Shown here piece after piece: positions 14,283 to 45,881 of a stretch of DNA of 64,000 bases. This DNA is from Dipteris shenzhenensis (lineage: Eukaryota). Positions within the stretch are counted from its first letter, which is position 1; every line of letters starts with the position of its first letter. Made by a program: the position numbers and the translations under genes. The notes beneath the pieces are model-generated. The model was given only the letters and a program-made list of their open reading frames with translations. It was not told the origin of the DNA and ran no database searches. The DNA lies in the NCBI GenBank assembly GCA_047967505.1, contig CM106538.1, one strand, 5' to 3'.

Positions 14283-14594
14283 CCGTTGTGCATTTATGTC
14301 ACTGACTTGTTAGCTGCAGATGTGGTTGGTACAACGCCCATGAATAATAGCTGGATGACAGCTATCCTTATGTACTCTAGTTTGTGGCTCAGTTAGTATG
14401 CCACCTTAGTTAGCTGAGTTTGGTTTGAGACCCACATATAGGGTTCTTCTATTTCTTTATACTAGAGTTCCTTTGGCTTTCAGAACTAAGAAGAGAAAAA
14501 CTATTTTCAGCCTCCAACTTTGTGTGTATTCCCCCATTGTGTATGTGAGAAAGCCGCAAGTGAGACTCCTTCCTTCTCTCCCACTATCTTCACA
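14243..14594 (+). repeat. 3' LTR of Copia A (352 bp, TG...CA)
   Basis: Starts TGTTGAGA after the PPT and ends CTTCACA. Both ends match the inverted copy at 58833-59190. Confidence 0.85.
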
Positions 14595-14811
14595 CTGTCA
14601 TCACCCACCATAATTCAAGGTTGTCTTGGAGAGACCACCACGCTAGTTCTTGGAGTTATATCTCCATTATCTATTTTTACGTATTACAAGAGGAGGTCTA
14701 TGATGACCAGCACGCTGGCAATTAGAAGGAGATCTATGATAGCCACCACGCTGGTTCTTGGAGTTATATATTTGTGAATTGAGGAAAATATATTCCATTG
14801 TGCAACCAAGC

Positions 14812-20145: not shown

Positions 20146-23100
20146 ATGGCTGCTAGATGTGGGGACAAGGTCATGATGGTGGTGGGGAATGAAGTGGTTG
20201 CAATTGGTGGTGTGTCATAGATGCAGAGGGCTATTGTAGTGGTGTGAAGATTGATGAAGAAAATGTATTGGTGATAGTGGAGAAGTCTATCAATAGTGAT
20301 ATGCTCTTGCCATTTCCCACTATGGATGCATTGCTTATTGGTGAGGCACTTTGGAGCATTGTCAAGTGGCCTAATACCTCTCTAAAACATGTTGGTGATT
20401 CTTTAGATGATCCGATAACTCAAGAAGCCACACCAAGTGAGCCTAAGCAACCTTATGTTGAGGCAATACCAATTTCTTCATTGGAAATTGACAATTGCAT
20501 TCCTGAATCTTGGAAAGAGAAAAAGGTTGTCTTGTGGGATGATAGCAAAACAAAGACCATGGGGGAAGGTGTGATCTTGTATGTTTTTCTGGGTGACTCT
20601 ATAAACTTTGATTTATTGGGTAACAATTGCATTGGTGTGGGTATTGAAAAGAAAGAACAAATGATAAGAAGTGGCTTAGGGTCTTCTATGCAAGATGTTG
20701 GATCTCTCAGCCTAGTTAAGTGGCCCATCAAGCAGATTACCTTAGTTAATGGAAGCCCATTGCAACAATATGTGCCCATGAGCCAGGTTGGTGGCACAGA
20801 TGAGGTGGTCAATGATCTAATGTTGAAAAAGGATGCTCCACCTTGAAAGAAAAGAAGGTACACTTTCATTAGCAGGGTGCCTAAACAAAGGAAGCCTCCA
20901 ACGCTAATGTACAAAATGTCACTAGAGTCGGTGGTGCAGCAAGTTTCATCCATCGATTGTTGTGGTAGTAGGTACTACCTAGCATGCTGAACGAGACGTC
21001 TTAATGTCTGTAAGGAAGAATTTTTGAGGCAGCTCCTTGGAGTCTCGTACAAACTTTTTATACGATATGTTGTTAATGGCTTGGCATCGTGACTATGCTA
21101 GGAGGATATGCTACAACTTCAAGGTAAACAATCGGGATGTGTGTTGTAGAGCATGGTACGAGATGCATGGAATCCCAAGGGCATCATTTTATCGATACAG
21201 GGAGCAATTTGAGAGTGGTGTGCAACGATATGTGCGTGGGAATTTTGGGATTGTGAGGAGGAGCAAGGTGCACACAGGTATGGGGAGGGCTCTCATTCAA
21301 CACTTTATGGATAATAGCACAGACCATATGCCTCACAAGAGTAGAACCATGTAGGATGGTTCTAGAGAGACACAGCAAGTGATACCTGAAGCATGAGGTC
21401 AACACTTCACTTAATCAACGTGGTTATCAGAGCTTATCCACATCCACATTTGGCAAGATTCAAAAATCAAACTTAAAAAATGTAGCCCTTGCTAAGACAA
21501 GTGAATTCTCTAAATGTAGCTTTTGCAGTCAGATCAAGGCTCAATTGGCAGCCACAAAAAGTCAAGATGAGTGCAATTCATTGATGGAGGAGAGAAAGAT
21601 GCATATGATACAACAACAGAGTTGCAAAAACTTATACTATGTATGGCATAGGTACTCCGAGATGGATCCAAAAAAGTATGTATGCATAATCCATGATATG
21701 ATGGACAAAAAAAAGACGACAATTCCAAGCCTTTGCGTGAGGTCCAAGGACACCGATTCTGCATGGCAATGATAGGTTTCACTCATTGGAATGATTACCC
21801 ATGGCCATGGACAAGTTCATTATGGACACTTCACCCTCAATGGTTTCTGGCCATCTGATCTCAACCTAACAATTGGATCGCTCTCAATTTGTTTGCACAA
21901 CCTAGAGAGGATGGATATGCATGACTTCAGAGACCTTGCTATAGATGGGATTCCAAGAAGCCATGCTCACCTTCTGAATTCTCTCACAAATTCCATGACA
22001 ACTTCCATTGCGAGGGATGCAGACAGAGTGCAGACACATGTAGGAATTTGTTGCCATCAGCTACTCGTGAAAATCCACCGTCTCCAAATTGATGTGTTGC
22101 TGTTGAGCTAACAAACCAAAGTTTCCAAAGAGCTTGCTACTCCAGCTAGATAATTGTGGGTCTCAAAAGAAAAATAGATACTTGTTTGCATACCTTTCTC
22201 TTCTTGTAGCAAGGGGAATTTTCAAGACAGTTCAATTGGGATTCTTGATGGTAGGGCACACACATGAGGACATTGATGCAATGTTTAGTAGGTTCTTTGA
22301 GAGTTTGCAAGTAGGACAAACATTCAATTTCCCTCATCTAATGGATACATTCAAAAAATGTACATCAGCTTCTCAAGCACCATTTCTTCTTACACGAGTT
22401 CCTAACTTCAAGGATTATGTGGATGGCTACCTATGTGATGGCCAAGAAATTTGGTTGGTCATGCAAAGCCATTACAATTTTGATTTTTCATGCAAGGTGA
22501 GAGACCTATGATGCAGTACAAGGTGCATCCAACATCACTACACTGGACACCCATTGAAGGGGGAATTGAGCTATGGAAGAAAGATAGTGAGGGTCGACCA
22601 TTGCTGCCTATAGGTTTTGCTCGGATATATTGCCAATGGTTGCATTTGTGAGAGATCACTTGTAAGTAATATCAAGGACAAAGGATTACATTAAGTTTTG
22701 GGAGAGATGTGCAAGTGGAAAGAATGTGTCGTATGAGTCCTACATTAGGCCAATGATAGACTACTGGAAAACCATGATCGGTGAGCTTGAACAGGAAAAC
22801 ATCTCAGAGATAGGCTCGGGGGGGTCACTATGTATAAACCCTCTATATCACATGCGTTCAAGGCCTATATTTAAAATCCCTTATCTGTAAATTTTTTCAT
22901 TAATAAAATGTACCCCTTTTCTATACAAATCTGTAAATTTTTTCCAAAACTATTTTAAATAGTCCCTTATGTATATTTATTTCTGTAAATTTTAGGAATA
23001 AAAAATATCCTTCTTTTGAACTCACGTGATAGGGTTACATATGATGAGTGACCCCCCCGAGGAGATAGGAGTGTATAGGGAATTTTGGCCAAGAACACAA

Positions 23101-23590
23101 TCGCCTGATGAGGAGGAGGATATAGATGCTTGTTAATGAGTTCCAAGGCTATGAGGAATGGAATGATCACTATTGCAGGCCTCTAAAAGGTAAGCCAAGG
23201 GAAGAGTTTAGACCAATGCTAGATGTTAAGGAAGGTGACTTCATCTTGGTGAGGCCATCAAACCCGGTATACCCCATATGGCTTGGGGTTGCAATATCAA
23301 GTGTCGAGATGGATGCTGCATCTCCTAACTTCAAGAAAGTATTAATTCAGTATTGGACACCATCAGTTAAGAGAAAGGGGCTTAGGGATGCAGATGCCTA
23401 TGTTGAATACTAGAACAAGTATTGGGCAGAGAATAGGTTGGATCAATAGGTGTGGGAGTGTATTGATGCAGTGGTCTGGTCATGGACATCAAAAGCCATA
23501 AATAGACCCAAGAAGATTAAGATTCCATAGAATGTATGTATCAAAGCATAGGAGAGCTTGCTTGGTATTAGAGCATATAAAAATGGTGAT
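20146..23590 (+). pseudogene. Decayed DNA transposase 1, Sola-like / DUF7869-type RNase-H fold
   Basis: Acidic motifs YVCIIHDMMD, LQLDNC..KKNRY and FLMVGHTHEDIDAMFS. Two N-terminal Transposase_23-like repeats (LLPFP...IGEALWSIVKWP). C-terminal GDFILVRP...IWLG...IQYW domain. Multiple stops and frameshifts. Confidence 0.8.
22815..23061. mobile_element. 247-bp MITE inserted in transposase 1
   Basis: Perfect 15-bp TIR CTCGGGGGGGTCACT / AGTGACCCCCCCGAG and perfect 8-bp TSD GAGATAGG (22807-22814, 23062-23069). Removal restores the frame ENISEIGVYREFWPRT. Confidence 0.92.
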
Positions 23591-24664: not shown

Positions 24665-27161
24665 TCCCTCGAGTGTTTGGAGATCTGGTAGGACAATAGC
24701 AATTATACGAGAAGGTGAGCAATGTAGCCTACCAATGTCCTCAATGCCAGGCCCTTGACTACCAGTGTCCTGACTAATAGGCTGCTCTAAGACAGTACCA
24801 ATGTCCTCAATGTGCCCTTGACTACCAGGGTCCTAACTAATAGGCTGCTCTAAGACTAGAGTCTCAGTAGCAAGGTCCTGGCTAGTATCATCCTGCCTAG
24901 TAGTTTGCTCTTTAGTTCCAAGCACCTGACTACTAGTAGGCTGCTTGAGAGTCTCATGATCAAGTTCTTGGTGAGTAGGGTCCTGGCTACTAGGTTCCTG
25001 ACTAGTAGGCTGCTCTAGAGTCTGTAAGGTCATGGTTGAAGAACCATCTATGCCTCCTGGTAACTCCTCCTGGTCATGCTTTGCCTCGTCCATACCTTCT
25101 TTGGGTAAGGCTTCCTTGCTTGATCCACTTGCATGTCCATCACCCAAGATCAAGGGTGCCTTTCTCACTTTTAATTTCAAGGGAAGTGCTTCCACCTCTT
25201 TAGCCTTACCTTTTCCTACGATGTGCTATACTACTACTTACTTGCTACCACGGGCCTTTTCGTATGATGAGTGGAACCTCCTTGACTCTAGTTGATAATT
25301 GATCACCCTTATTCTTTGTGTGGATTTCCTCTCGGCGTAACTCATCGGATGCAGAGCTTTCATCCTCATCATCGCCTGAGCTAGAATCATCACGCTCAGA
25401 CTCACTACCCTCGTCTTTGACATTTTCCTCATTACCCTCTTCTTTGACATTTTCCTCTTCAAAGAAGGTAGTACAACTGTGATATGTGTCAAAGAACTCA
25501 ATCTGATTGGTGGTATCAATGACATTTATATTTCTACCTTGGCGTAGCAATTTCTCAACAACAAAACCGATTCGATACAATGCTACTTCCCACCCATCAT
25601 TCAGTAAATTCTTTGTCATCTCTAGTATCACATCAAGATCCATCAGCTTTCTATAATCCACCATTACTGCATCAACGTTAATCTTATTGTCCTCAAAATA
25701 ATGAAGCTTGAGAGTCCTTAAAGGAATTTTGATTAGATTGCCACTACCCCTGGATAAGAAGCACATCAAGAAAGGCTGCAAGACTTGAATGGAAGTGCGT
25801 TCCAAGACTGTGATATGATTGTCAACCTTATTACTTGGTACGCCTTGCATATTGCTTATAACACCTTTCAAGCATCTATAGAACCGAGTCGTCTTTGCCA
25901 TGTACTCAAATGTAGGTCTCTTGCCCTTCACAGTTTGTGGCTTTCCATAGCCCACCCATAACTCCCTTGCCTCTATCAGGATCTCAGAAAGAAAAGATCT
26001 TTCTTTCAACCTAAATGGAGTAGACCTCAACCTTTTTGATTCTAGAATGTACTTCGAGTCATCGTTAAATATGCATACATGACAAATGACCCATTGAAAC
26101 TTTTCCATCCACTCAATCTGTGGCAAGTTTCCTTTTCTTCCCTCAACAAGGGTGATCCTGCAAGCTTCACAAAAGTGTTGCCCATCAATGGGCTCAAAGC
26201 TGCATCTTTCCAAGAATCTATTCTTTGCCAGCATGTATCTCTTCTTGATGTTAGTCCCATATCGGCTTTGGTACAAAGCCTCTCCACAAACAAAGTCACT
26301 CCTTCTAAAATTCTCAAAAGCATCAAGAAAGTCCACACGCTTTTGAAATGTGACATCAGGCAATGTAGGATCATCTTCTTGAAGTCTCTTAAACACCATA
26401 GGAGGAAGAGTGATATTAGTGGCAACTAGAGTTCTTGTTTTCCTCGTATCTTCATACAATTTGTGTGCAAATGTCTTATCTAGCTTTATTTGATTTGTGA
26501 ACAACGAAGCTGTATCAATAAGCATTGTGGCCATGCTAAATTGTGGAAATCCCCAAATGTACCCCTCATCCTCTCGAGGATGTAAGTTCGCCACACTTAT
26601 AGAAAAGTCTGCGAGATTTGTATCTTCTTCTTGCAGATCCTCTTGGTCATCACTATCCAATTTTTTGCTTGGTTTTAAATAACCTGCACTTGAACGATTT
26701 GCACATGGAGTAGGAGTTATTTTGGCTCTCTTTCTGGGAATAGCTGTGGAACTTGAATCTGCTCCATGATCACTCCTTCTTGTTCTTGTAGTTGTTGCAG
26801 TAGTCAATGGTGTAGGTACAGTTGGAGATAATGTAGTTACTACCGTAGATATTGTAGTTACTTTTGTTGGAGATACCGTAGTTATCGGCACAGATATTGG
26901 CGGTACAACTTGAGGGATACATGTTATAGATGGCATACTTACTGCTGATGGAGGTACAACACCACCACTTGGAAATGCATCCCACATTTTCTTCAATGCT
27001 TCCAAGGCACTAAGTAATTCTTGGGATCCCTCAATTGAATCTGGTAAGGGCTTCAAAAAGTGCTTGTGTGTGACTCGTAACTTGTAGACCACATCGTCAT
27101 TCTTCCCTTTGCACACAACTTCTATCAAATTGTTTTCTTTAATGTTGATGGTTGAGACCAT
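24665..27161 (-). CDS. Main and 3' part of a large unknown protein with a ParB/Srx-like 'PIDGQH' motif (open 27161-25245; frameshifted repetitive tail to ~24665)
   Basis: 638 open codons: P/T-rich linker, NLS-like PRKRAK, FEPIDGQHFCEAC, acidic tail. A further frame continues with LEQP[TI]S repeats. Confidence 0.7.
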
Positions 27162-30100
27162 TGTAAGAAAATAATACGTCTGTGCTCAACAGATAACAAG
27201 ATCTCGTATGCAAGAGAGAAAATAGATTGTATGAGAGAAGCTTTGATGGCATGCTGGAAACAGTAGAGGACGGAGACTGGATGCTAAGGAATCAAGGTTG
27301 CTGTAGCCAGTGATGAAATGGGATTCATGAGCTCGCTCTTATATAGTCACTAGTTGTAGTCGGTTAGACCCAATTTGGTGACCGACCTAGTCCGCCCAAA
27401 ATGGTCGACTGGGGGTTGGGGCCACGGACCACACGATAGAACCATGGCATAAAATAGAGCCATCCGAGATCATCTCGGACTCCAAACGGGCTCTACAACC
27501 CAAGAGTGGGCTGCCTCAAGAAAAGCTTTGTCTTACCTCAGTGCGATCAGTCATGGGATGCCTTCTTGCACTTGTTGGTAAGCTGAAAGGAAAGCAAAGA
27601 GTGGACACAAACTCAGAATACTTGCATTATGGAATGAAGAAGAGTGAGGTCCTTAAGTAGGCACCTCATACATGCTCACTGACATCATTGATGACTTCAG
27701 AGCTCCACAATCATCTCCTCAATCTGCTCCTAGATTCTCTCAATCATCCTATGTGGCTCTCCACCACCTAATTGTGCTTGTGGGCACCTAACTGTGCCTC
27801 TAGCACTCACACATAGAAACCAAGGTGTGCCTGAGGCATACATCTTGAGATATCCCATCAAACCCCCCTTCAAGGGAATGCCTCAGGCTATGTCAAGGAT
27901 ACATCTAGTCTCATAGTTTCTCATGCCATCTCATGGTGGTTAAGGATAAATCTATGGCTAGGTTCTCATGCTAGCAAGGGTTCCCATGGGTGTAAGGTAA
28001 ACAAAAGGGATACAAAAAGACCTTCCAATGGTTATCTCCCCTACATGTACATGCACAAATGTCTGTAGGAGGTACCATGGAGCAAAACATACACATGGCC
28101 TACATCATAAGGTGACCAGAGGTGTAAACACACAAAACACAATAGTTTATTTCATTCATTTTGGAGGACTATCCAGGCTGAGTACCTTGACATAAAAAGA
28201 GAGATCTGGAGCATACATAGAGATGATTTAAAATGCATAATCTTCAAAGGATGTCTCATCTTGTGGAGGCTCATCAACTGAAAGTAGATTTGCATTTTTT
28301 GTCTTTGAAGTTGCTTCCTTTTTGGCAACCATTATCTTGGCAATCTTCAACAAGGAAGCCATGTTGGCATTTTCTTCCTTTGTAGCATAACAAGACATTG
28401 CTTTATGTTTAGGCTTTTCACATATTTTGCATAAGCAAGCCATGAGAGGGTCTAACACAGGTATTAGGCAGTGTCTTCTCTCTTACAAGGCTTAGAATAA
28501 CAACTGAAATGCTTCAAAATATAAGCATTTAATGTAGCAAAGTCTTGTGACCAAAAATCAAACAATGATGCTTTTTCTTACATGCTTCATAGAGATGGCT
28601 AAAATGAAAGCTTTCCAATCAAAACCAGGTATAGCGGCTCAAAGCAAAGCTGAAGCCACAGTTGTACTCATGTTATTGAAAGTTTCAAAAAACCAGAAGT
28701 GCTAGAGTAGCATTTTATGTAGCATCATCTTCAAAAACTTGTCCAAAACTATCAAAACCAAAAGGCTGAATTTGGAGGGCTTGTAGCTCACTCTTCAAAG
28801 CAACGAAAAGAGGGCTTTCTGAAGCAAAAGAAAGCTCATATACCAAAGAGGATCCAGCACGGAGGTTGGACGAAATGGCGCGTGCTATTGCCCGGGGGAG
28901 TTGCTACAGGCTGAACCTGAGTTTTGACGATTTCTCCTTCGTTACTGAACCAAATGAGCTGAAAAATGACTCAAAATCTTTGTCTTGAGGTCGCCCATCT
29001 ACGTTTGTAGTCCACTTGTAGTACATTCATTTTTAACTTTTAAGAACTCATATTCTAATACTCAAAGACAAGCAATGGCAGAGCAGGCAGGGAGTATAGA
29101 GGAAGGGCGAAAAAATGCGCTGTTTGGAGAATGGTAGCCAATAGAGACTTTTTTTTTTCAATTGCTTGCAGGTGGAAGTTTGCCCATACTAGAGGAGTTT
29201 ACAGCTTAGAGGGTTTGGGCAATGGTCGTTTGTAGGCAGAGAACCAAGCTCTCAAAGATTTTGGGAAGAAGGAGGAAAATGGAGAAGAAGAAGATGAAGA
29301 AGAAGAAGATGATATGGCAGAAGTGGGCTCAAGGGGGATCAAAGGGCTCTGATACCATGTTGGTAAGCTAAAAGGAAAGCAAAGAGTGGACACAAACTCA
29401 GAATACTTGCATTATGGAATGAAGAAGAGTGAGGTCCTTAAGTAGGCACCTCATACATGCTCACTGACATCACTGATGACTTCAGAGCTCCACAATCATC
29501 TCCTCAATCTGCTCCTAGATTCTCTCAATCATCCTATGTGGCTCTCCACCACCTAACTGTGCTTGTGGGCACCTAATTGTGCCTCTAGCACTCACACATA
29601 GAAACCAAGGTGTGCCTGAGGCATACACCTTGAGATATCCCATTAGCACTTGCATGCAAGAGACTTCGTGAAGATGTTCGCAGCATTCTCTGTAGTCAGA
29701 CAATACACCAAGTTGACCTCTCCATCCATGATGAGCTCGCGTGCAAAGTGATATTGAATCTCAATGTGTTTTGTGTGAGCATGGAACACAGGGTTCTTTG
29801 CAATCACCATGCAACTCTGATTGTCACATGATAATTGCGTAGGCTTGTTCTGCACTACACCCATGTCCCCCAAAATCCTCCCCAACCACACTGCCTTGCA
29901 AGAAGCAAAGCATGCTGATTTGTACTCAGCCTTGGTAGAAGAAAGAGCAACTGTGGGTTGCTTCTTGCTGACCCATGACACAACTCCAGATCTAAGTGAG
30001 AAATAGTACCATGTCATTGATCTCCTGCTGTCCACATCTCCTGCCCAATCCGAGTCACAAGATCCGATCAAGATGTTGCCTTTGGTATAGGTGATGCCAT

Positions 30101-33100
30101 AATAAAGTGTGCCTTTGATGTATTTCAGCACCCGCATCCTTGCCCTCCACCAATGGTTTTCTCGAGGCTTATTGGAAAACCTGCATAGTACACCAATCAC
30201 AAAGCTGATGTCCGACCGTGTGTTGCACAAGTAAATCAAACTGCTCACAAGCCTTCTGTACTTTGCTTCGTCCACCAGTGGTGATGAATCCTCATTTGAG
30301 AGCTTCACATCAACCTCCATAGGGGTACCAACTGTCTTGCACTCAGCCATGCCAAATGCCTTCAGTATCTCTCCAGCATACTTCAGCTGTGAAAAGAAGA
30401 TCTGTTTTGGCTCTTGCTAAACTTCAATCTGCAAACAGAAGTGCATCAGTCCAAGGTCTATTATTTCAAACTCTCTTCCTAGCAAATGCTTTGTTTGCGA
30501 GATCTTCTCTTCATGGTTCCCAGTTATGACAAGGTCGTCCACATAAAGGACCACAATCATACACCTGCCTCCTTCTCTGAAGATATACAAATTTGCATCT
30601 AATGGGCTCCTCCTGAACCCGTTTTGCAGAAAGTAGACATCAATCTACTGGTACCATGCTCGTGGGGCCTGTTTCAGCCCGTAAAGTGCCTTCTTCAGTT
30701 TATAGACTTTACCTTCTGAATCGAGGATCACAAATCCTAGTGGTTGTTCCACGTATACCTCCTCCTTGAGATCTCCATTCAGAAAGGCGAATTTACATCC
30801 ATCTGAAACACAGGCCAACTTCCCTAGGTAGCTAAAGCCAAAATACTGCGAATTGTGGTTAGTCGAGCTGTGGGAGCAAAAGTATCATGATAATCAAAAC
30901 CATGTACCTGTGCAAATCCTTTTGCCATGAGCCAAGCCTTGTACTTATCCAATGTACTGTCGGACTTGTACACCCACTTGGTGCCGATTACCTTGTGTTT
31001 TGGTGGACGATCCACAAAGTCCCAAGTGTTGTTCTTCATTATGGAGCCATACTCCATGTGCATAGCCTCCATCCACCTATCATCACCCTGTGCCTCTTCA
31101 AGACACTTGGGTTCATGAGCACGGATCACCTCAGTCATCAAAGCGTAGCTGACCAAGTGTTCCTGTGCCCTTCTTTGCTCCTCTAATCTCTTGGACCGAT
31201 GGTGTTTGGATGGTTCCTCCTCAATGGCTGGGGGTTCTCTATCATCCAAAAGCTGCTTTACCCACTTTGGGAATGGTTGTTGATGTTGTGCTTCTTCAGG
31301 CTCTTCTTCATCTTCTTTATCTGAAATCCTCCCAAGCACCATTGGGGGAGTTCGGTCTGTTGTTGGTGGTGGTGCTGGATGGATATCCTGGTCCTGGTTG
31401 TCTGGGAAGGAAGCATCCTCCTCCAATTGATGCGGCTATTCTGAGAAGACCACATTGCGACTTACTATTACCTTCTTGGTAACAGGGTTATAGAGACGAG
31501 ACGTTGTTTCACCGTGTACCTTTACCAATGACCTTCCCTTGAAGATCCAGGATCTGTGCACCATTCTTATCAAATTGAACTTTGAGGTCTCGATCCATGA
31601 TCGCAAAAATGAACAACAAGTTCCTCTTGATATTTGGCACATAAAGAACATCAGACAACTGTTTTACAACTCCATCTGACTTGAGAGTAATCGTATCTTT
31701 TCCTTTTGCGGGACATTTTGCATCATTGCCGATTGCTACCAGGATGTCATTCCCTATCGGCTCTAGAGAGGTATACCAATCCTTCTGACTCGTCATGTGG
31801 CGCGATGCACCACTGTCAATAATCCAAGGTTCATTTGTAGGTACATGAACTACCTTCGTGCAAATCTTCTCAATTGCGACGAACAGCTCTACTGGTACTA
31901 CCTGCGCGATGTTGTTGGACTCTTTCTTTATTCTGTTCTTCTCATCTATAATCTTCTTCCCGCACTCATTCTGCTTGTGCCTTGCCTTGTTGCAATAGAA
32001 GCACTTGATCTTCTTCTTTCTCTTTTTATCATCAGAAGAAGATGGGTTACTAGAGTCCTTACCCTTACCTTTCTTTGATCCAATGTAGAAAGCCGAATCT
32101 TCTCTAGTCCTCATCTTTTGACACATCTCCTCCTCAAGAAGCATTGCGCTGAAATCCTCAAAGTTGAGGGGCGGATTTATGTTCTGTGTATTTAGTGCCA
32201 TAACAAGACCGTCGTACTTTGGTGGGAGAATCTGTATGCACCTTCATGCTAGATTCTCGCTGGTGATGGTGATGCCAATCACAGTCATCTAATCGCACAG
32301 ATTCTTCACCCTGGTGATGAACTTCTCTACCGCTTCAGACTCAGACAATTTCTCATTTGCGAGCTGAGTCTCCAGATTCTGAATTCGCGTTTGATTCGTG
32401 GTCTCATACTGATTTTTCAAGGCTGTCCATGCCTCCTCTGCTATGGTGACATGTTGAATTAATGCCATGACAAATCACTTACACTGCAGACAATAGAACA
32501 CAGCGCATCTGCATTTCTTCTTGTCCACACGAGAATCTCATCTGTAGTTGGTACTATCGTGTTGTCCTGCATTGGCTAGATCCGGTGGCCTCACGTCCAC
32601 CCCAATAGCAGTGTCCTAAAGCTCGTATGCGCTTAGGACGGTCTTCATCTTGAACTTCCAGAGTGGATAGTTAGAGCCATCCAACTTTTCTCTTTCATCG
32701 AACAGTGGGATTCGCAGTCTTGCGGGCTGGCCCATCTCTCACAATCTGCTCGCAAACAGAAACACACTACCAAATCTACTTGCTAGAGTCCAGGCTCTGA
32801 TACCATGTAAGAAAATAATACGATGTTTGTGCTCAACAGATAACAGGATCTCGTACGTAAGAGAGAAAACAGATAGTATGGAGAATCAAAATTTTGATTA
32901 CTGTAGAACTGATACAATAGATGGCACTACCTCCCAACTGTGTGCTTCTGTGAGAGAAGCTTCGATGGCGTGCTGGAAATAGTAGAGGACGGAGGCTGAA
33001 TGCTAAGGAATCAGGGTTGCTGTAGCCAGTGATGAAATGGGCTTCATGGGCTCACTCTTATATAGCCACTAGTCGTAGTCGATTAGACCCAATTTGGTGA

Positions 33101-33470
33101 CTGACCTAGTCCACCCAAAACGATCTCGTAGGCCACCGACCACACGATAGAATCGTGGCATAAAATAGATCCGGTAGCTTGGACTCCAAACGGGCCCCGC
33201 AACCCGAGAGTGGGCTGCCCCAGGAAAAGCTCTGTCTACCCTCAGTGCGATCAGTCTCATGGGATGCCTTCTCGCACTTGCATGTAGCCTAGTTGGCAGT
33301 GTGCCAACTCTGTCCAACCATCAGGCCACACATGGCCCCCATCTGGTATCCAAACCAGGTCCTACCAGATAACCGAGCTACTCAAATGCCTTCTCCTCAT
33401 ATGGGGGGCTTAAAGTAGAGTTAATTGGTTCCCGCATAGTTACACGAGAGTGGAGCATTGATATCTAACA
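27162..33470 (-). mobile_element. Ty1/Copia element C (integrase core deleted)
   Basis: TSD ACCAT (27157-27161, 33471-33475). 5' LTR 32806-33470, PBS TGGTATCAGAGC (tRNA-iMet, 32794-32805), gag ATG 32735, WIIDSGASRHM, RT and RH (CDSDWAGD). The 3' LTR (27162-27572) is interrupted and partly deleted. Confidence 0.95.
27573..29645 (-). mobile_element. Non-autonomous gag-only LTR element 1 (TR-GAG/TRIM-like), nested in the 3' LTR of Copia C
   Basis: 288-bp LTRs (27573-27860, 29358-29645), TSD GCACT, iMet PBS at 29346-29357, PPT beside the left LTR. Gag remnant CKICEKPKHKAMSC...SFEDYAF. No pol. Confidence 0.9.
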
Positions 33471-33625
33471 ACCATGCCACCATTTCTTACTGCCTCTAGA
33501 GAATATTTCATGCTTGACACATTCTCGGCAGTGATTACCAAAAAATACTTTGATTTGCACTCCATAAAATACCAAGCATGTTCAAGATATTTGAAAGACA
33601 CCTTGGAACCAAAACTCAAAGCCAT
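33471..33625 (-). CDS. 5' coding part of the same ParB/Srx-like gene, separated by the Copia C insertion
   Basis: MALSFGSKVSFKYLEHAW...RNGGMV joins MVSTINIK... in frame across the ACCAT TSD. A splice acceptor TTTGATTGCTTTGCAG lies just before the ATG. Confidence 0.75.
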
Positions 33626-33659
33626 AGTTTTCTGCAAAGCAATCAAAAACAAAAAATGA

Positions 33660-34066
33660 GAATTACAATGATTTTAAAACTCAAAATATTAAAAGAATTG
33701 CTAATTAAATATTTAAATATTAAAAAGTAAAAATTAATTAAAATTTCAAAAGTTAAAATATATTTTAAAAAATATATTTTTATAATTCTACATACTATTT
33801 TTTAATCTAATATTTTTTTACATAAATAATTTAGTTCAAAATATTTTATAAACATAGATAGAAGAATTTAATTTAATTTTTCTAAAATTTTATTTTATTT
33901 ATTTATCTATATATTTAAATTTTAATGTTACTTTTCTAAAATTTTTCTAATTCTAAATTTTTTATTTCTTTAAAATTTAATTTAAATTATTAATTAATTT
34001 AATTTAATTTCTTATTTTTTTTAAAAATTAAATTTAATTTTTTTGTCTCTTTAAAAAAAAAAAAAA
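33660..34066. other. Extremely AT-rich tract, probable 5' intron of the minus-strand gene
   Basis: Nearly pure A/T sequence that ends at a canonical acceptor on the minus strand near 33632. Confidence 0.5.
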
Positions 34067-34077
34067 GAGCTCGAAAG

Positions 34078-34390
34078 GGCCCCCACTTCCTTAAGGGAGG
34101 GTTAATCCCCTCCCTAAGCCCCCAAAGGGGGGGCCTATTGCGTGCGCAACAGGCCCCCCCTTTGGGGGCTTAGGGGAGGGGCCTCACGGGCCAACCTGTT
34201 GTGCATGCAATAGGCCCCCCCTTTGGGGGCTTAGGGGAGGGGCTTGTTGTGTGCACAATAGACCCCTCCTTTGGGGGCTTAGGGGAGGGGACTAACCCCC
34301 CCTGAACCTATTGTGCGTGCAACAGGCTAGCCCGTGGGCCAGCCTAGTGCGAGCGCAAGAGCTTCAGGGGGGGTTAATCCCCCTCCTCCT
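34078..34390. promoter_or_regulatory. GC-rich island with repeated palindromes and GGGGGCTTAGGGGAGGGG units
   Basis: Near-perfect hairpin at 34107-34181, three direct units, and four 16-bp quasi-palindromes. Lies between two divergent ORFs. Confidence 0.5.
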
Positions 34391-35145
34391 CTCCGCCTCC
34401 CCGCCTCCTGTCCTTCACCTCCTACCTCCCACCTCTCCTACGCCTCCCTCCTCTCCCCGCCTCCCCGCCTCCCCCTCTACCTCTCTTTGCCTCCCTACTC
34501 CTCGCCTCCCCGCTCCTCGCCCCCCCAAAAAAAAGATGGAGCGCCTCTCTGCTCCCTGCCTCCCCGCCTCCTCACTCCCCCCAAAAAAAAAAAGACATAC
34601 CGAAGGGGAAGGGGAGGGACGGAGAGGATTCATCATCGAAGGGGGGAAGCGGGAGAAGAGGGGAGGGGGAAGTGGGTGGAGAGGGGAAGGGAGGGGAGGG
34701 AGGAAGGGAGGAGAGGGGAAGGGAGGGGAGGGGGGAAGCGGGAGGAGAGGGGAAGGGAGGGGGGAGGAGAGGGGCAGGGAGGGCAGGGAGGAAGGGAGGA
34801 GAGGGGAGGTGAGGGGAAGGGCTCCCATCCTCCCACCCCACCCCTCCCACTCCCACTGCCATCCTCCCACCCTCACCCCACCCCCACCTCCCCCATTCCT
34901 AGTCCCTCTCCCACTCCCACTCCCATTCTCCCACCCCCACCCCCACCTCCCCCATTCCCACTCCCTCTCCCACTCCCACTCCCATTCTCCCACCCCCACT
35001 CCCATCCCCACCTCCCACAATCCCACTCCCTCTCCAACTCCCACACCCACCTCCCCTCTCCTACTCCCACTCCCACTTCCACACTCCCACTCTCCCTTTC
35101 TCCCACTACCACCCTCCCAACTCCCACTCCCATTCCCACATTCCT
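34391..35145. repeat. Polypyrimidine, polypurine and (CCCACT)n low-complexity tracts
   Basis: C/T-rich 34391-34580, G/A-rich 34600-34820, CCCACT/CCCATT repeats 34825-35145. Confidence 0.9.
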
Positions 35146-35221
35146 ACTATTAATTCCACTCCTACTTATGAATCCTACTTAAAACTATTACTTAAATAAA
35201 TGATATTACTAAAAACACTCA

Positions 35222-36229
35222 TAGGATTTAAGGTTTAGGGTATAGGGTTTGGGGGTTAGGGTTTAGGGTTTGTGAGTTAGGGTTTAGGGTTTGGTGGTTT
35301 AGATTTAGGGTTTGGGGGGTAGGGTTTAGGGTTTAGGGTTTGGGGGTTTGGGTTTAGGGTTCGAGGTTTGGGGGTTAGGGTTTAGGGTTTTGTGGTTTGG
35401 GTTTAGGGTTTGGGGGTAGGGTTTAGGATTTAGGGTTTGGGGGTTAGGGTTTAGGGTTTAGGGTTAGGGGGTTAGGGTTCAGGTTTTGGGTTTAGGGTTT
35501 GGGAGTTAGGGTTTAGGGTTTAGAGATTAGGGATTAGTTTTTATTTGTTAGGGTTGAGGGTTTAGAGAGTCAAGATTATCATTTACAGTTTAGGGATTAG
35601 GGGTTAGGGTTTAGGGTTTAGGGATCAAGGATAAGGGATTAGGGATTAGGGTTTGAAAATTAGGGTTTATAGGTCCTATAGGGTTTACGGTGTAGGATTT
35701 AGGGTTTAGGGGTTAGAGGTCTAGGATTAGGAATTAGGGGTTAGGGTTTAGGTTTAGTATTTCGAGGTTAGGGTTGAGGGTTTAGGATTTAGGGTTTAGG
35801 GTTTAGAGGTCTAGGATTAGGATTGAGGGTTTGGGAATTAGGGGTTAGGGTTTAGGTTTAGGGTTTTGAGATTAGGGATTAGGGGTTAGGGTTTACGGAT
35901 TAGGATTTAGGGATTTAGGATTTAGGTTTAGGTATTAGGGTTTAGGGTCTAGGAATTAGGGTTTTGGGATTAAGATTTTGGGATTAGGGATTAGGGGTTA
36001 GGGTTTACGGATTAGGATTTAGGTTTAGGGATTAGGGTTTAGGATTTAGGTTTTAGGGTTTAAGGGTTAGGGTTTAGGAATTAAGATATAGAATTTAGGG
36101 TTTAGAAATTAGGGGTTAGGGTTTAAGATTTAGGGTTTAGGGTTTAAGAATTAGGGTTTATGGTTTCAAGGGTTTGAATTAGGATTTGGGGATTAGGGGT
36201 TAGGATTTAGGGTTTAGGGTTTAGGGTTT
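35222..36229 (+). repeat. Interstitial telomere-like array, degenerate (TTTAGGG)n, ~1 kb
   Basis: TTTAGGG units mixed with TTAGGG, TTGGGGG and GATTAGG variants, G-rich on the + strand. Confidence 0.95.
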
Positions 36230-36350
36230 GATTAATTTTTTAAACAAGATCTAGATTTTTAAATAATTAATAAAGTATATTATTGAGAAGAGACTAATGT
36301 TCTTTATAATGGTTGTTACAGCTTGTTTGCAAAGGAAACTCACAAAGGAG

Positions 36351-39300
36351 ATGGCTACAAAATTTATTCTGGGGATGGAGGTGATTCTATGTTGCAAAAG
36401 AGAAGTAGTTGCATTTGCTACAGTCCATGAAAGTGATCCAAATTCTATTTGTCACTTTAGAAGACTTGGCGAAGATAAGGTGGCGGTTATCATATCAAGG
36501 ATTCTTAGTGCACATGTTGAGCTAAAGCATAAGTGTGGGGATATGGAAATCCTTGGAGATGTTATGCCCTATAATACTTCCAACAAAGCATTTATTGCAT
36601 GGGATAGAGATGAGACTTATCTAACACATGTCATCAGGAATACAAAGTGCATATCTTTAGATTTTAGCGTGGGAGATATTTTACAAATGTTATCATTTAC
36701 AAATAAGAATGTAGCAGAAGGTCAAGTCTTGGGATTTGAACAAGTGGAACACAGGACATTTGCACAGATGAGAATTCAAAAAGTTACTAATGATGGTATG
36801 GATGATAACTCAATCTCATTGGATGGTCCCTACTATGAGGTAGGTAAGGATTTGACATGGAGCATGCAATTTTTAAAGATTGGAAAGACTCGGCATGTGG
36901 TTTTTAATGATAAACATAATGTATACTACAACATCAAAGAATTGAAAGAATATGCCAATGTACCAAGCTCTATTCCTTTAGAGATGGATGATTCCAATGC
37001 ACTCAACTATAGCATTGACTTATTATCAGAAGTCGATGAGTTCATTGGTAGCGAGAAAGAAAAAGATTTCACAAGTGATGCCTTATTCGGGGTGGATGAG
37101 TTCATGCACATTGAGAACTTGGGCAAAGATGTCAAAAGTGATATCTTTTCAAGCATGGATGGCTTCATGGATACTGATAAAGTTCTTGGAGTCAAACCAA
37201 GTAATTATGGAATTATGGAAATCATGCATGATAGTATAATGAGTGATGTTCTTTCTGGAGTAGAGGAGTTTCAAGACTATGGAGTTGTGAAATCCATAGA
37301 AAGTGCATCAATGAGTGATGCTCTCTCAGGAATAGATGAGTTTGAAGACCATTCTGGACACTCTATCACCACTGACTATGGAGTTATGAAATCCATAAAA
37401 AGTGCATTAATGAGTGATGTTCTCTCAGGAATAGATGAGTTTGAACATCATTCTGGACACTCTAATGCCATTGTGACAAGTGGTTCTACGATTGTATCAA
37501 AAGTAGGGATGAGATCAACAAAGCCTAACTATTCGGTATTTGACTTTGATTGTGAAATAGTTAATGTTACAAATGGTTTGACAAATGTATCAAAAGCAAG
37601 GATGACATCAACAAAGGACTATTCATTATTTGACTATCATAGTGATAAGATCAAGGATGCAACATCTCATGAAAACAACGTGACAAATAAATCTTACAAG
37701 GAGAACTACACAAGTCCAAATAAGAATGTACAGAAGGTCCCAAAACGGACATACAAATGCATGAAACGGCAAATCCAAAAAAGCAACCAAAGAGAATGAG
37801 TAATGAATGAAGATATTATTCTAAAAGCAATGCGATCTACTGTATGATGTAAGCGTAGATGTATGCGATCCATTAACTTACATGACATCAAGGGTTGTAG
37901 AGATCATATCTGGCAAAGGAAAGGGAGCAAGATAAATGAATACCTACTCAAGAGACTATCTTGCTTTCTTGTAAATGATAAGAGAAGGCGAAGTTCAGGA
38001 CAACAGATAAGGCCTCTTATAAATGGAAAAAGTGTTTGCAATAATGCATATCACATTATTATAGGATTATCACATGGCACATATTGGAATTTGGCTAATA
38101 AAGCAAAGTATGGAGTTAAATTTAACATTCATGAAAACATAGGAAGGCCCAAAACAAGAGCCTCAATGGTTGCAGCAATAGCAATTTTGAAAGGTTACAT
38201 CTATGAAAATGCTTTACCGCAACCCCATCTATCAGAAATGCATCTTGCGATAGGTTTGACTAAAAAAGAAGTATTTAACTCTATTGGAGAAACACAGCGG
38301 CAAAGAGGGCATGCACCAGCATCTTTCCGTACTTTGTATACTCTTTGGAAAAAAAGCTTTGGACATGTTAAAATCCCAAAGAGGCAAAAAATGTCAAAGT
38401 GCAACGACTGTGATGATCTAAAGTGAGCACTTGAGAGTGCAACATCTCCAGAACAAAAAGAAGCTTACAAAAAAAAGAGAGAATTTCATCATGGACTTGT
38501 TCGACATTCTAGAATAAAATATGCATTTTGAAAGGAGCAAGCTATTTCTCACCCAAATGAGTACATGTGCATTATTGTAGATGGTATGGATCAATATACA
38601 ACAACATTACCTCGATTCATTAACACTCCACCTAAGCTACAAGGAAAATACTTTTTAAAGACACATATATGTGGAGTGTTAGTGCACGGATTCAAGTTTT
38701 TTGTAGACATATGGATTGATTCCTTGCATCTACATGATAGCAATCAAGTTGTAACATCCGTTGCAGACAATTGCGAATGAGAGAATAAGAATGTACTCTT
38801 CTTTGCATTCTACTCAATGCTAATCACTCATAGAATCTTCAATGAGATTGAAGTTGGGTTTTTGTTGGTTGGGCACACACATGTGTATATTGATCAGGTA
38901 TTTAGCACGGTTTTAAGAGAACTAAAACACAAGGACATGGAGACGATGGATGACTTGATAAGAAAATGTGGGAGGCAAGTTGGTGGCCATAAGGAAGGAA
39001 CAATATGATCAATGGTTGAGAGGATGTATGATTGGAAGAGCTTTATTCTACCTTTCATACAAAAAGGTGGTGATGCCCTGATAGGTCATAGTGCTCTACA
39101 CTATTTTCACTTTTTCTTAAAGGATGAAAAACCAGTGATGCAATGGCAACACTATTCTCTTGATACAAAATGGGAACCTGAAGAACCTTACTCTCTCTTA
39201 ACTTCGATCTCGAGCAAAGAAATGCATCCAACATGGGCTCCTATAAAAGAATTCAGCGAGAAATCCAAAGGTGAAATAGAAGGCTTGAAAGCTTTTATTA

Positions 39301-39960
39301 CATACAAAGAGGAAATGCTCCAGAGATTTCCTGATTGGAAGCCCTCTTGGAAGGAACACACTACTGTTGTAATTAGCAAGACTACCAATTGATAAAGGAC
39401 CTTGTAAAAATGCAAGAAGATGATATTAAGGTAGAACGGTCTTTATTTTGGCCAAATGTTGGTAATGACTTGCATCTAGCATGTGGTCTCTTTGAAAATG
39501 AGTTTGACTCGCTACTCCCACGTCCATATTATGACCCAAGAAGAGAGTTTATGCCACAAATAGACATAGACGTCCATTGTTTTGTTGTAGTTCTTTGTTG
39601 GAGTTCGACCATCGGATGATGAACATGAGAACGTGAAGTTTTGGGTTGCGAAAGTAGTTGACGTGAGCATGGATGACCGGGGGAGAGCTACAACATTTAC
39701 AGCGGTATGGTATGAGCCAAGGGGTAGGAAGGAGAACCAAGATAACAATACATTGTATAGTAGTTGTTTGAAAAAGGAATGGGTCCCAAACCATGATGCA
39801 ATTTCAAGACTTTCCACAGAGACAGTCATAGTATCCTGGAAATCAAGGTGAAAGAAAACAAAGAAGCACATGGGGTATGATGTAGAAGACAAAATAAAAA
39901 ATTACCGCAACCAATTATTTTGCACATTAAAGAGTTCATAAAGATGCTCACCTAGGAGGA
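36351..39960 (+). pseudogene. Decayed DNA transposase 2, Sola-like / DUF7869-type, homologous to transposase 1
   Basis: Two N-terminal Transposase_23-like domains (VVAFATVHESDPNSICHFRRLG...FIAWD), SKCNDC, YMCIIVDGMDQ..T.LP, ADNC, FLLVGHTH.YIDQVFS, C-terminal FWVAKVV...AVWYEP. Branch point CTAAT and acceptor TTACAG (36321) precede the ATG. Confidence 0.82.
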
Positions 39961-43600: not shown

Positions 43601-43801
43601 CCATCATGTACATGCTCCTCTTCCCCCTCTCCCTTCCCCCTTCTGGCATAGTCCCTCTCTTCATTGCCACCCCTCTTAATCCTTTTTCCCCACCTATGTT
43701 AATGCTTCTTCCCTCACGTTCCCTTTTCCTCTATGGCCCTCGAGCGTCGCCATGCCTTGCGTCTAGTATCATGCCTCGAATTCTTTCCTAGTTAATAGAA
43801 T

Positions 43802-43819
43802 TGGTGTGGCTGTTGGGAT
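43802..43819 (+). promoter_or_regulatory. Primer-binding site complementary to tRNA-His
   Basis: TGGTGTGGCTGTTGGGAT matches the complement of the plant tRNA-His(GUG) 3' end as I recall it (TGGTGTGGCTGCTGGGAT), with one G:U-compatible change. It directly follows the LTR end. Confidence 0.7.
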
Positions 43820-45730: not shown

Positions 45731-45881
45731 ATTTGATATGGGTTTACCGACTTCGAAAGATCATCAGAAAGGTCCTCAAGGACATTGCTCAAAAGAAGGA
45801 TGCCAGACCACAGTCCCCTTGAAGAAATAGCATGGTGATTACAAGAACCGGAAGAAGTTGAAGGTGATATGCAAGCTCTCC

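Follow-up and report, generated by a model that had tools for sequence, protein, structure and literature searches.

The window, a stretch of 64,000 nucleotides from Dipteris shenzhenensis analysed here as a whole, contains on its minus strand a gene that has been split by a retrotransposon, as an earlier reading of the sequence alone had observed. With somewhat better than even confidence, we regard this gene as a dead copy from an undescribed, eukaryote-only family whose central domain has a ParB/Srx fold, and which is part of a selfish element present in many copies, not a lone gene of the host.

The sequence-only reading had proposed that a gene of about 690 codons lies hidden across an insertion of about 6.3 kb, and that its flanks share a target duplication and join in frame. 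The split open reading frame (ORF) consists of these parts:

33476..33625, minus strand: 5′ part of the split ORF, codons 1-50, beginning MALSFGSKVSFKYLEHAWYF (translation; N-terminal HMM collinear into the downstream part)
33471..33475, no strand: right copy of the 5-bp target-site duplication ACCAT (sequence)
27157..27161, no strand: left copy of the target-site duplication ACCAT (sequence)
25245..27161, minus strand: 3′ part of the split ORF, with 638 codons (P0001) and then the stop codon (25247-25245)

Codons 1-50 form the first half of a conserved N-terminal domain, and the left ACCAT copy gives an in-frame ATG on the minus strand (27161-27159). At the left junction ...ggttgagACCAT is followed by tgtaagaaaataatacg (27157-27161, then 27162), and at the right junction ...gatatctaaca is followed by ACCATgccaccatt (33470, then 33471-33475); the inserted block thus starts with TG, ends with CA and has a perfect 5-bp duplication, ACCAT, on either side. 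The stop-to-stop ORF 25245..27185 has 646 amino acids. A scripted join of 33625..33471 with 27156..25248 yields 688 codons without a stop, from an ATG at 33625-33623 to the stop codon at 25247-25245, and the block removed is 6309 bp long, in agreement with what had been proposed. An HMM built from the N-termini of 16 distant relatives finds one domain in the joined protein (29.4 bits; E 6e-8 against six-frame ORFs of the window; residues 8-114 aligned with profile positions 4-110); on the separate pieces it scores 13.7 bits (downstream) and 6.1 bits (upstream). Because the relatives' profile spans the junction as one domain, the join is more than a lucky frame: it restores a single collinear conserved domain.

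The inserted block is a retrotransposon with a further insertion inside it:

27162..33470, minus strand: degenerate Copia-type LTR retrotransposon, 6309 bp, same orientation as the split ORF (LTRs, 5-bp duplication, domain matches)
32806-33470: 5′ LTR of the Copia element
27162-27574: 3′ LTR of the Copia element, interrupted by the nested element, far end missing
31509-32243, minus strand: Copia gag/Pol_BBD
30824-31435, minus strand: start of Copia RVT_2
27575..29643, no strand: nested small element of ~2.07 kb within the Copia 3′ LTR (terminal direct repeats)

The Copia ends are direct repeats of 85-88% identity (32806-33280 against 27162-27574, blastn), and the element has TG..CA LTRs, the 5-bp target duplication, and gag and RVT_2 in Copia order. 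It is degenerate, with internal deletions, and its integrase and most of RT/RNase H are missing. The nested element has 286-bp terminal direct repeats (27573-27858 and 29358-29643) that are 98% identical. The neighbouring transposable element (TE) genes are broken, as had been noted: the longest Copia pieces in the window have 257, 244 and 203 amino acids, and the longest pieces of a second type, DUF7869, at most 134.

The joined protein matched no family in Pfam, NCBIfam, PADLOC or PHROGs, and no PDB sequence. Among 1.84 billion (1.84e9) representatives there are 16 relatives at E≤1e-3, to which profile A2 adds 21 more; the sole named relative is a hypothetical protein of the lycophyte Diphasiastrum complanatum. 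A language-model atlas places the long relative P0075 beside clusters that are 100% eukaryotic, with Streptophyta commonest (0.96, 0.94), and the prokaryote genomes, viral contigs and JGI metagenome records that were scanned held no confirmed relative. The family is real, rare and unnamed, has no entry in Pfam or NCBIfam, and is an undescribed, eukaryote-only family with a plant (streptophyte) signature. Its plant-type members are ORFs of 69-269 amino acids on contigs of 1-4 kb, mostly stop-limited fragments, and 90% clusters with 31 and 38 members span widely differing lengths and many contigs, although clusters from metagenomes could mean many samples instead of many copies. Judged from these sequences, the family looks multi-copy and decayed, and for this reason we take it as probable that the gene belongs to a selfish element and is not a lone host gene.

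The protein is 688 amino acids long in the window copy and 750 to over 1100 in relatives. It is predicted to begin with a conserved N-terminal domain; a basic, disordered linker then leads to the ParB/Srx-fold domain in the middle, and the C-terminal region carries an acidic tail:

26970..27161, minus strand: second half of the N-terminal domain (P0001 residues 1-64); the long relatives have a homologous N-terminal domain, 'EHGWWI...'
26721..26738, minus strand: basic cluster PRKRAK, P0001 residues 142-147, in a Ser/Thr/Pro-rich linker; candidate nuclear localisation signal
26010..26552, minus strand: predicted ParB/Srx-fold domain, P0001 residues ~204-384, model residues 10-190 (AlphaFold model, structure matches)
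26175..26186, minus strand: DGQH motif, P0001 residues 326-329, model residues 132-135 (sequence, model, motif census)
25362..25844, minus strand: C-terminal conserved region (residues ~440-575), then acidic tail; common to plant-type fragments P0003, P0010, P0011 and P0015
24836..25225, minus strand: open frame running on out of frame past the stop, its start weakly like the tail of P0011

Both FEPIDGQHFCEAC and PRKRAK, to which the sequence-only reading had drawn attention, are present in the translation. That reading went on to call the protein nuclear, a claim that we would weaken: its sole basis is the basic clusters in the disordered linker (PRKRAK, with similar clusters at the same place in relatives P0014, P0038, P0039 and P0044), and these suggest that the protein may be nuclear. 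At the other end, the frame at 24836..25225 shares 9/23 identical residues with the P0011 tail (E 0.008 in a single comparison), collinear with the upstream C-terminal match; because of this weak resemblance, a frameshift or premature stop at the 3′ end of the window copy is possible.

The ParB/Srx reading of the central domain is supported at the fold level, through the one good model of five, because ParB, PadC, KorB, Noc and sulfiredoxin fill its top 14 PDB matches. This AlphaFold core model (me408baffce2f, from 40 sequences) has a pLDDT of 72.8 and a pTM of 0.63; the remaining four core models reach pLDDT values of only 57-59, and a model of a 411-residue stretch 49. Foldseek ranked ParB first in the PDB (E 0.16, probability 0.80), with no match at E≤1e-3 in PDB or BFVD. 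When the Foldseek matches were rescored, ranks 1-14 were all ParB, PadC, KorB, Noc or sulfiredoxin (Z 9.6-6.5), after which the list falls to Z 5.1 with helical hairpins on another part of the model. A Foldseek-independent structure search over 48,161 PDB representatives placed PadC (Z 8.4, rmsd 3.3, 99 aligned), Arabidopsis sulfiredoxin (7.4) and KorB (7.4) at ranks 1-3, and pNOB8 ParB-N (Z 6.9) and human sulfiredoxin (Z 6.0) at ranks 5 and 6, all aligned to model residues ~2-190; a Z of 8-10 is only moderately above the tool's stated best-hit background of 7-8. In BFVD, the top five matches are phage Spo0J/ParB proteins (probability 0.99-0.82). Sequence profiles do not join in. PF02195 (ParB_N) had no hmmscan match among 20 family members at E up to 1 or 10, DndB/DGQHR and other curated models (NCBIfam, PADLOC) had none among 6 members at E up to 10, and profile A2 found none among PDB sequences; nor did the profile of any other family match a member. 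The earlier suggestion of a ParB/Srx-like fold thus stood in its structural part, the predicted core matching this fold first in three libraries, but not where ParBc and DGQHR/DndB profiles were concerned.

It is conceivable that this match is an artefact of a model from a shallow alignment, that the fold is another or a new one, and that DGQH is a chance resemblance. Only one of five AlphaFold models exceeds pLDDT 60, the Z scores are near the tool's background for best hits and the sequence profiles lend no support, all of which would fit. We nevertheless think this improbable, as one superfamily tops three independent lists (14/14, 5/6 and 5/5), the matches span ~95 of ~100 residues of small targets (86/89 for Arabidopsis sulfiredoxin), the conserved motif lies at the signature strand-to-helix turn, and a language-model search with P0075 gives phage clusters with ParB_N as the next named sets, albeit at low scores of 0.75-0.77.

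In the model, DGQH sits between strand E126-128 and helix H134-149. Alignment A3 has D in 29/31, G in 29/31, Q in 29/30 and H in 29/30 sequences, and 48 of 96 proteins carry the motif, as 41 DGQHI, 5 DGQHF, 1 DSQHF and 1 YGQHF, with R in none; the residue after DGQH is I or F in 48/48. On sequence comparison, DGQH is nearly invariant and the loss of Arg is a family trait, not a lesion of the window copy. The sequence-only reading, which had seen in the motif a DGQHR signature with Phe for Arg, was right about the Phe and about the DGQH segment, which homologues keep, but no copy retains the R.

The central domain has three conserved elements: TN[Q/H]R before helix 1 (R in 24/25 other members), EP[V/I]DGQH[I/F]xxAC where strand passes into helix, and [E]SxRxN in the next helix (model residues 181-185; S 20/21, R 18/21, N 21/21). 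As we read the model, their order and secondary-structure positions match the nucleotide pocket of ParB, and the register that would set DGQH on GER(R) comes from secondary-structure order and aligned ranges, not from a printed superposition. In intact members, the central domain could be a ligand-gated (nucleotide-type) DNA-binding or DNA-processing module, and it may bind ligand or DNA. Binding would be more likely than hydrolysis, because another residue takes the place of the canonical phosphate-binding Arg, and the position of ParB's catalytic Glu is occupied by Gln. Nucleotide binding is itself uncertain, since that Arg is absent in all members.

The best structural matches of the predicted core are the N-terminal CTP-binding domains (PF02195) of bacterial ParB, Noc, KorB and PadC, with rescored Z of 9.6 for Myxococcus ParB 7bnk (rmsd 3.0, 96 aligned), 8.6 for both PadC and Caulobacter ParB, 8.4 for Bacillus ParB, 7.5 for KorB and 7.4 for Noc. 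The ParB pocket motifs are GE78RR[Y/F] and E111NLQR, according to PMC8494293. The family has the strand/helix order of ParB and, like it, a conserved motif containing Gly where strand turns into helix; polar motifs are conserved ahead of helix 1 and again in the helix that follows the next strand. Unlike ParB, it has no HMM match, its domain holds a three-helix insertion of ~60 residues (model 64-125), and its proteins are eukaryotic, 700 to over 1100 amino acids long, with unrelated flanking domains. At the inferred equivalent turn, GERR[Y/F] is replaced by DGQH[I/F], with both Arg and the catalytic Glu changed, and ENLQR is not recognisable as such; [E]SxRxN might be its counterpart.

The DGQHR, DndB and GmrS families are prokaryotic defence and modification proteins. 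According to PMC4619093, the signatures of DGQHR domains are a 'QR pair' and a nearly invariant DGQHR, and the DGQHR/DndB and GmrS (DUF262, DGQQR) domains also have the ParB/Srx fold. Our family shares with DGQHR/DndB the identical letters D-G-Q-H and an upstream Q/H-R pair (R in 24/25 other members; I in the window copy, R225I), but the defining Arg occurs in 0/48 and an FxxxN motif is not evident. The DndB-containing entry 9jfl appears only at rank 20 in Foldseek (E 1.9) and is absent from the rescored top 50. Sulfiredoxin has ~100-130 amino acids and a catalytic Cys in GGCHR. It is matched over nearly the whole enzyme (Arabidopsis 6ky4, Z 7.4, 86/89 aligned; human 3hy2, Z 6.7), and both are eukaryotic; however, the family has Gln at the inferred Cys position and 12% identity, and its domain is embedded in a large multi-domain protein.

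A different lead points to fungi. In the language-model atlas, residues 190-575 score 0.95 with two fungal clusters (169 and 163 features in common), 22% and 78% of whose members carry DUF3723 (PF12520). As described in PMC9156397, DUF3723 is a large, mobile-element-associated protein of unknown function, auxiliary in the giant Starship transposons of fungi. The likeness is one of language-model resemblance only, together with a similarly large mobile-element protein. With E cut-offs of 1 or 10, the DUF3723 HMM had no match in 20 family members, P0075 did not retrieve the DUF3723 clusters in the atlas, and the literature searched held no DUF3723-ParB link.

The window copy itself looks dead. 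A Copia element cut the gene at codon 51, and three near-invariant residues have since been lost: R225I (family R 24/25), R253P (26/29) and N379R (N 21/21). At sites one and three the remaining plant copies all have the family residue, and at site two 3/5 have it; R225I and N379R fall in the first and third conserved elements. That the gene was intact or under selection until the insertion, as had been inferred earlier, is doubtful for a single host gene, given its fragmentary, multi-member relatives, the three replaced residues and the suspected 3′ frameshift.

Nevertheless, an LTR divergence of 12.5% would lead one to expect a much less open ORF, a puzzling discrepancy. The LTR pair has a K2P distance of 0.125 (397 aligned sites, 34 transitions, 11 transversions, 6 indel events); the nested insertion and internal deletions are other signs of the element's age. 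In a simulation of neutral drift at the LTR per-lineage rate, the probability of no new stop is 0.02, and ~17 indel events are expected in the ORF, with P ~1e-6 for none; at one third of that rate, the joint probability of an open ORF is ~0.004. This excess argues for some constraint, or for a faulty LTR clock. Constraint would be understandable if this were a domesticated host gene still working after the insertion, its 638-codon part kept open by selection because the same-sense 3′ LTR directly upstream could drive its transcription. The shared orientation of Copia and ORF, the ATG (27161) created inside the target duplication at the start of that part, the age of the Copia element beside an open ORF and the low neutral probabilities speak for such a gene. 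We consider it unlikely, since three near-invariant family residues are replaced, such a gene would lack its first 50 codons, where the N-terminal domain has its conserved EHxW motif, and a 3′ frameshift is possible, while the transition bias of the LTRs (34:11) and gene conversion among LTR copies could have inflated the clock.

We prefer a dead copy of a selfish-element gene. Its mobile-element status is circumstantial, and no element termini, inverted repeats or second ORF copy were found within the window. Relics of a DUF7869-type transposase lie nearby on the plus strand (21028-23410), and the ORF might be an accessory gene, convergent with it, of the same DDE transposon. Two-gene DNA transposons are common in plants, PF25273 matches flank the ORF (22107-22508, E 6e-33; 38781-39005, E 4e-21), and the 3′ end of the ORF and the end of the left relic face each other tail to tail across ~1.8 kb. 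With TEs this dense in the window, however, such adjacency is expected by chance. At the protein level the two DUF7869 copies have only ~44% identity, and they have almost no DNA in common, so they represent independent old insertions; no partner ORF accompanies the right-hand copy within the window, and no terminal inverted repeats enclose transposase and ORF. We therefore give this origin little credence.

Returning to the selfish-element gene, a bolder version can be put forward as speculation that we consider unlikely. Streptophytes might harbour selfish elements of a class not yet described, or an old gene family that arose from such an element. The signature protein would be a ParB-like DNA clamp or processing enzyme of eukaryotes, gated by nucleotide, whose pocket has been re-tooled (DGQH[I/F], no Arg). 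This protein might be the plant counterpart of the fungal Starship DUF3723 proteins, and after the Copia insertion selection may have kept the window copy open, through reading from the LTR.

The locus is a pseudogene, and its value is as an entry point to the family, besides being an odd case of an ORF outlasting the retrotransposon that interrupts it. To our knowledge, outside sulfiredoxin the ParB/Srx fold is essentially confined to prokaryotes, plasmids and phages (partition clamps, DndB, GmrS, ParB-methylase fusions) and is rare in eukaryotes. Through the family, an unclassified set of repeats in lycophyte-type genomes would become tractable and, if the weak DUF3723 lead is true, a functionally uncharacterised auxiliary gene of Starships would gain its first structural clue. 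A large, nuclear-type plant family on the ParB/Srx fold, with a pocket motif that is conserved yet lacks the canonical arginine, would extend this fold into eukaryotic genome biology.

The window is plant-like and packed with transposable elements: a Pfam scan of its long ORFs found Copia pieces (RVT_2, rve, gag_pre-integrs, Pol_BBD and Retrotran_gag_2) and Gypsy pieces (RVT_1, RT_RNaseH_2, Integrase_H2C2 and rve) across its length. On its minus strand lies an ORF in two parts, separated by a block of 6309 bp that has TG at its start, CA at its end and a perfect 5-bp target duplication on both sides. The parts and junctions are as follows:

25245-27161, minus strand: downstream part of the split ORF
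27161/27162, left junction, ORF on minus strand: ...gagACCAT/TGtaagaaaataatacg
27162-33470: inserted block
33470/33471, right junction, ORF on minus strand: ...atatctaaCA/ACCATgccacc
33476-33625, minus strand: upstream part of the split ORF

The block has direct terminal repeats (32806-33280 versus 27162-27574), and in its interior Pfam detects, on the minus strand, Copia gag/Pol_BBD and the beginning of RVT_2. Its TG/CA ends, terminal repeats and Copia domains, together with the target duplication, identify it as a Copia-type LTR retrotransposon, oriented like the gene that it interrupts. This element, which is old and degenerate, has neither integrase nor most of the RT/RNase H. The far end of its 3′ LTR is missing, and that LTR is interrupted by a nested element of about 2.07 kb (27575-29643) whose 286-bp terminal direct repeats are 98% alike; the nested element is much younger than its Copia host. 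When a script took out the Copia element and one copy of the duplication, the joined frame, which starts with the ATG at 33625 and ends at a stop at 25247-25245, had 688 codons and zero internal stops. The sequence-only reading had proposed a gene of about 690 codons rejoined across an insertion, and the uninterrupted frame and perfect duplication bear this out. The downstream part alone is a 646-aa stop-to-stop ORF, of which the product used here as a query, P0001, covers 638 aa. Upstream of the gene start, the interval 33640-36210 holds, in order, 400 bp of extremely AT-rich sequence, some 1.1 kb of low complexity (G-rich at first, C-rich afterwards) that includes 61-bp repeats, and tandem repeats with 7-, 14- and 21-bp units over about 1 kb.

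Long relatives of the split-ORF protein share a conserved N-terminal domain with the pattern MA..(K/E)HGWW(I/V)... With an HMM of this domain, built from 16 long relatives and applied to all six-frame ORFs of the window, the downstream piece scored best at 13.7 bits and the upstream piece next at 6.1 bits. Applied to the joined protein, the same HMM aligned once and collinearly, its positions 4-110 covering residues 8-114 (29.4 bits, E 6e-8), and the start codon of the ORF matches the relatives' own start (MA...). The Copia element thus interrupts a real gene, and does so within the N-terminal domain.

The split-ORF protein has no match in Pfam, NCBIfam or PADLOC, nor to any PDB sequence, and PHROGs yielded no match under E 0.03 for its family. 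An exhaustive phmmer search of 1.84 billion representatives returned 16 matches at E<=1e-3; the majority are ORFs 69-269 aa long from contigs of 1-4 kb, and one, from the lycophyte Diphasiastrum complanatum, is annotated as a hypothetical protein. With a profile of the core domain (A2), 21 further proteins were found in ENA, JGI, Logan and NCBI, none of them named. The 90% clusters of these relatives have at most 38 members and very unequal lengths, including 746, 812 and 1160 aa, and in the protein atlas the 1160-aa relative adjoins two clusters that are 100% eukaryotic, with Streptophyta the commonest group (scores 0.96 and 0.94). A word-indexed search with the single protein found nothing near full length, and P0003 was the sole shorter match. 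Scans of JGI metagenome records with the family profile A4 and with the query P0085, and scans of viral contigs and prokaryote genomes, gave pattern matches but no confirmed relative. Taken together, these searches depict a eukaryote-only and probably streptophyte family that is rarely annotated and consists mostly of broken copies. The literature searched yielded no published description of a comparable family.

An AlphaFold prediction of residues 190-600 with 19 sequences reached a pLDDT of 49 and was left unused. For residues 195-450 with 40 sequences (alignment A3), the best model had a pLDDT of 72.8 and a pTM of 0.63, and the other four reached a pLDDT of only 57-59. No Foldseek match against PDB reached E<=1e-3; eight of the first 12 rows (six entries) are ParB, KorB and Noc, led by Caulobacter ParB (E 0.16, prob 0.80). 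A Foldseek-independent structure search of 48,161 PDB representatives placed PadC at the top (Z 8.4, rmsd 3.3, 99 aligned), followed by Arabidopsis sulfiredoxin (Z 7.4, 86 of 89 residues) and KorB (7.4), and then by a free serine kinase (7.2), pNOB8 ParB-N (6.9), human sulfiredoxin (6.0) and SbnI (5.9); we take the free serine kinase and SbnI to contain a ParB/Srx-type domain. All seven align to model residues ~2-190, and the remaining rows are helical hairpins on model residues 190-256. On rescoring of the Foldseek matches, ranks 1-14 were ParB, PadC, KorB, Noc and sulfiredoxin (Z 9.6-6.5) and rank 15 fell to 5.1, while the first five rows in BFVD were phage Spo0J/ParB proteins (prob 0.99-0.82). 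The Z values for the ParB/Srx matches are modest. Since the three lists are coherent and the small targets are covered almost completely, a ParB/Srx fold is clearly the best reading of the core domain, and on this predicted model we hold it to be very probable. The searches thus lend support to the fold that had been surmised from the sequence alone. All of the matched solved structures differ from the family in that they are without its three-helix insertion (model residues 64-125). The domain falls outside ParB_N, with no profile match and no GERR. Phage P1 gave no PF02195 match.

The most conserved stretch of the family is EP[V/I]DGQH[I/F]xxAC, in which A4 shows an invariant D and at least 90% conservation for each of E, G, Q, H, A and C. 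The motif is present in 48 of 96 proteins, as DGQHI (41), DGQHF (5), DSQHF (1) and YGQHF (1), and Arg follows the His in none of the 48. Of the DGQHR signature to which this stretch had been likened, the homologues keep the DGQH with few exceptions but never the Arg. TN[Q/H]R, whose R is kept in 24 of 25, and LTLRPI precede the motif; after it come a strand that ends in DD, then Y..[E]SxRxN, whose N is kept in 21 of 21, and ELW..G.P. By the definition given in a GmrSD paper (PMC4619093), DGQHR domains combine a QR pair with the DGQHR pentapeptide and an FxxxN motif within a ParB/Srx fold. The present family has a QR-type pair and four-fifths of the pentapeptide, whereas FxxxN is not evident; with no Arg and no profile match, it lies outside the DGQHR domains.

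In the model, DGQH occupies residues 132-135, between a strand (126-128) and a helix (134-149). The same strand-to-helix turn holds GERR in ParB and GGCHR in sulfiredoxin, in place of which the family would have DGQH. The register was set by the order of elements and by counting back from the ends of aligned ranges, with residue numbers that we take to be Cys99 for human Srx and Arg95 for Myxococcus ParB. By this register, the position of Glu78 in Bacillus ParB would be Gln in the family, and that of the second Arg would be I/F. In PMC8494293, Glu78 is a candidate CTP-hydrolysis residue, mutated to Gln among 'CTP hydrolysis-defective ParB mutants', and the equivalent residue is Phe in PadC, which binds CTP without hydrolysis.

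The family probably represents the gene of a selfish element with many copies, as suggested by its long intronless ORFs, its many stop-limited fragments, the wide divergence of the copies (most plant-type matches are 35-57% identical, with a highest value of 80% for P0003) and the transposable-element surroundings. The proposal of a host gene under selection until the insertion was not supported, and the locus is a broken copy. No terminal inverted repeats of at least 13 bp were found between the flanks in six pairings. Fragmented relics of DUF7869 (PF25273), a DDE-type transposase, lie on both sides of the split gene and show DNCGSQKKN...GHTHEDID motifs:

21028-23410, plus strand: left DUF7869 relic, best piece E 6e-33
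38532-39848, plus strand: right DUF7869 relic, E 4e-21

The split ORF could on this arrangement be an accessory gene of a DUF7869 transposon. We regard this as improbable, since the two relics are only ~44% identical in protein, neither relic plus the split ORF is surrounded by inverted repeats, and the window has no second copy of the split ORF (tblastn of P0001 returned only itself). DUF7869 had no mention in the literature searched. Just upstream of the right relic is P0002, a 510-aa frame (36267-37799, plus strand, then 37848-38423, plus strand) without a Pfam match and with internal repeats of the MSDxLSGxDEFxxHSGHS type, which may encode the front of the protein of that element. A protein-atlas lead pointed to fungal DUF3723, which PMC9156397 and PMC11162782 describe as a Starship auxiliary gene of unknown function. 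We consider a link of the family to DUF3723 unlikely: the DUF3723 HMM found no support in the split-ORF family, and the literature searched contained no DUF3723-ParB connection. Other repeats in the window are:

1-2225: perfect tandem duplication, period ~1291 bp (1-300 = 1292-1591; 634-933 = 1926-2225; 100% identical)
14002-14596 and 58831-59432: inverted repeats of ~600 bp, 91-93% complementary and 44 kb apart, probably the same repeat present twice, in opposite orientations
41430-58656: large LTR element with LTR-like repeats (41430-42706 versus 57364-58656) that are 88-95% alike

The last of these is a nest of several retrotransposons, as inside it are Gypsy pol genes, a piece of Copia gag and a further pair of repeats, 43150-43449 and 53346-53645, that are 96% alike.

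In the window copy, three near-invariant residues are replaced: R225I (in TNQR), R253P (in LTLRP) and N379R (in SxRxN). The R225 and N379 sites have the family residue in every other plant copy, and the R253 site has it in three of five. Past the stop codon, another frame is open for 130 codons, and its start weakly resembles the tail of the relative P0011 (9 of 23 identical, E 0.008) in a position collinear with the main alignment, which suggests a frameshift at the 3′ end. We read the window copy as a pseudogene.

The Copia LTR pair has a K2P distance of 0.125 (397 sites, with 34 transitions, 11 transversions and 6 indel events), and despite this divergence the two parts of the ORF comprise 2064 bp without stop or frameshift. 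A neutral simulation, which assumes that the ORF drifted at the LTR per-lineage rate since the insertion, gives 3.7 new stops (P(none) = 0.02), and ~17 indel events would be expected besides. Even at one-third of this rate, the ORF would stay open with a joint probability of only ~0.004. One possible explanation is that the ORF was constrained after the insertion; the 638-aa part could be expressed by way of the same-sense 3′ LTR and the ATG that lies in the target duplication, but the loss of invariant residues argues against simple purifying selection. It is also possible that the ORF was refreshed by gene conversion from other copies, or that the LTR clock is fast here, through transition-biased change (probably methylation-driven) or conversion among LTRs. 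Three RNA runs of organism A (probably another species) were uninformative on expression, as two had no match and one had a single read 90-95% alike. A DNA run, X1, covers only 26092-26265 and the Copia LTR.

The family protein begins with the N-terminal domain and a Ser/Thr/Pro-rich linker that contains a basic cluster, and continues with the ParB/Srx-type domain, more helices, a conserved C-terminal region and an acidic tail. The basic cluster is PRKRAK in the window copy, and the relatives P0014, P0038, P0039 and P0044 have similar clusters. Homology between the C-terminal region of the plant type and that of the long relatives was not supported (hhalign probability 5.9%). The segment FDCRRGGxGG of the relatives was matched by eye to methyltransferase motif I, an assignment that found no support; phage ParB_N-methylase clusters reached atlas scores of only 0.75-0.77. 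The domain, which is predicted to fold and would presumably also work in the manner of ParB/Srx domains, is best classed as a new eukaryotic branch of that superfamily. The family protein would be a nuclear, DNA-associated protein. Its central domain may bind DNA or a ligand of the nucleotide type in what was the ParB pocket; three conserved polar motifs would lie at pocket positions in the proposed register. The chemistry would have to be altered, since the Arg residues are gone.
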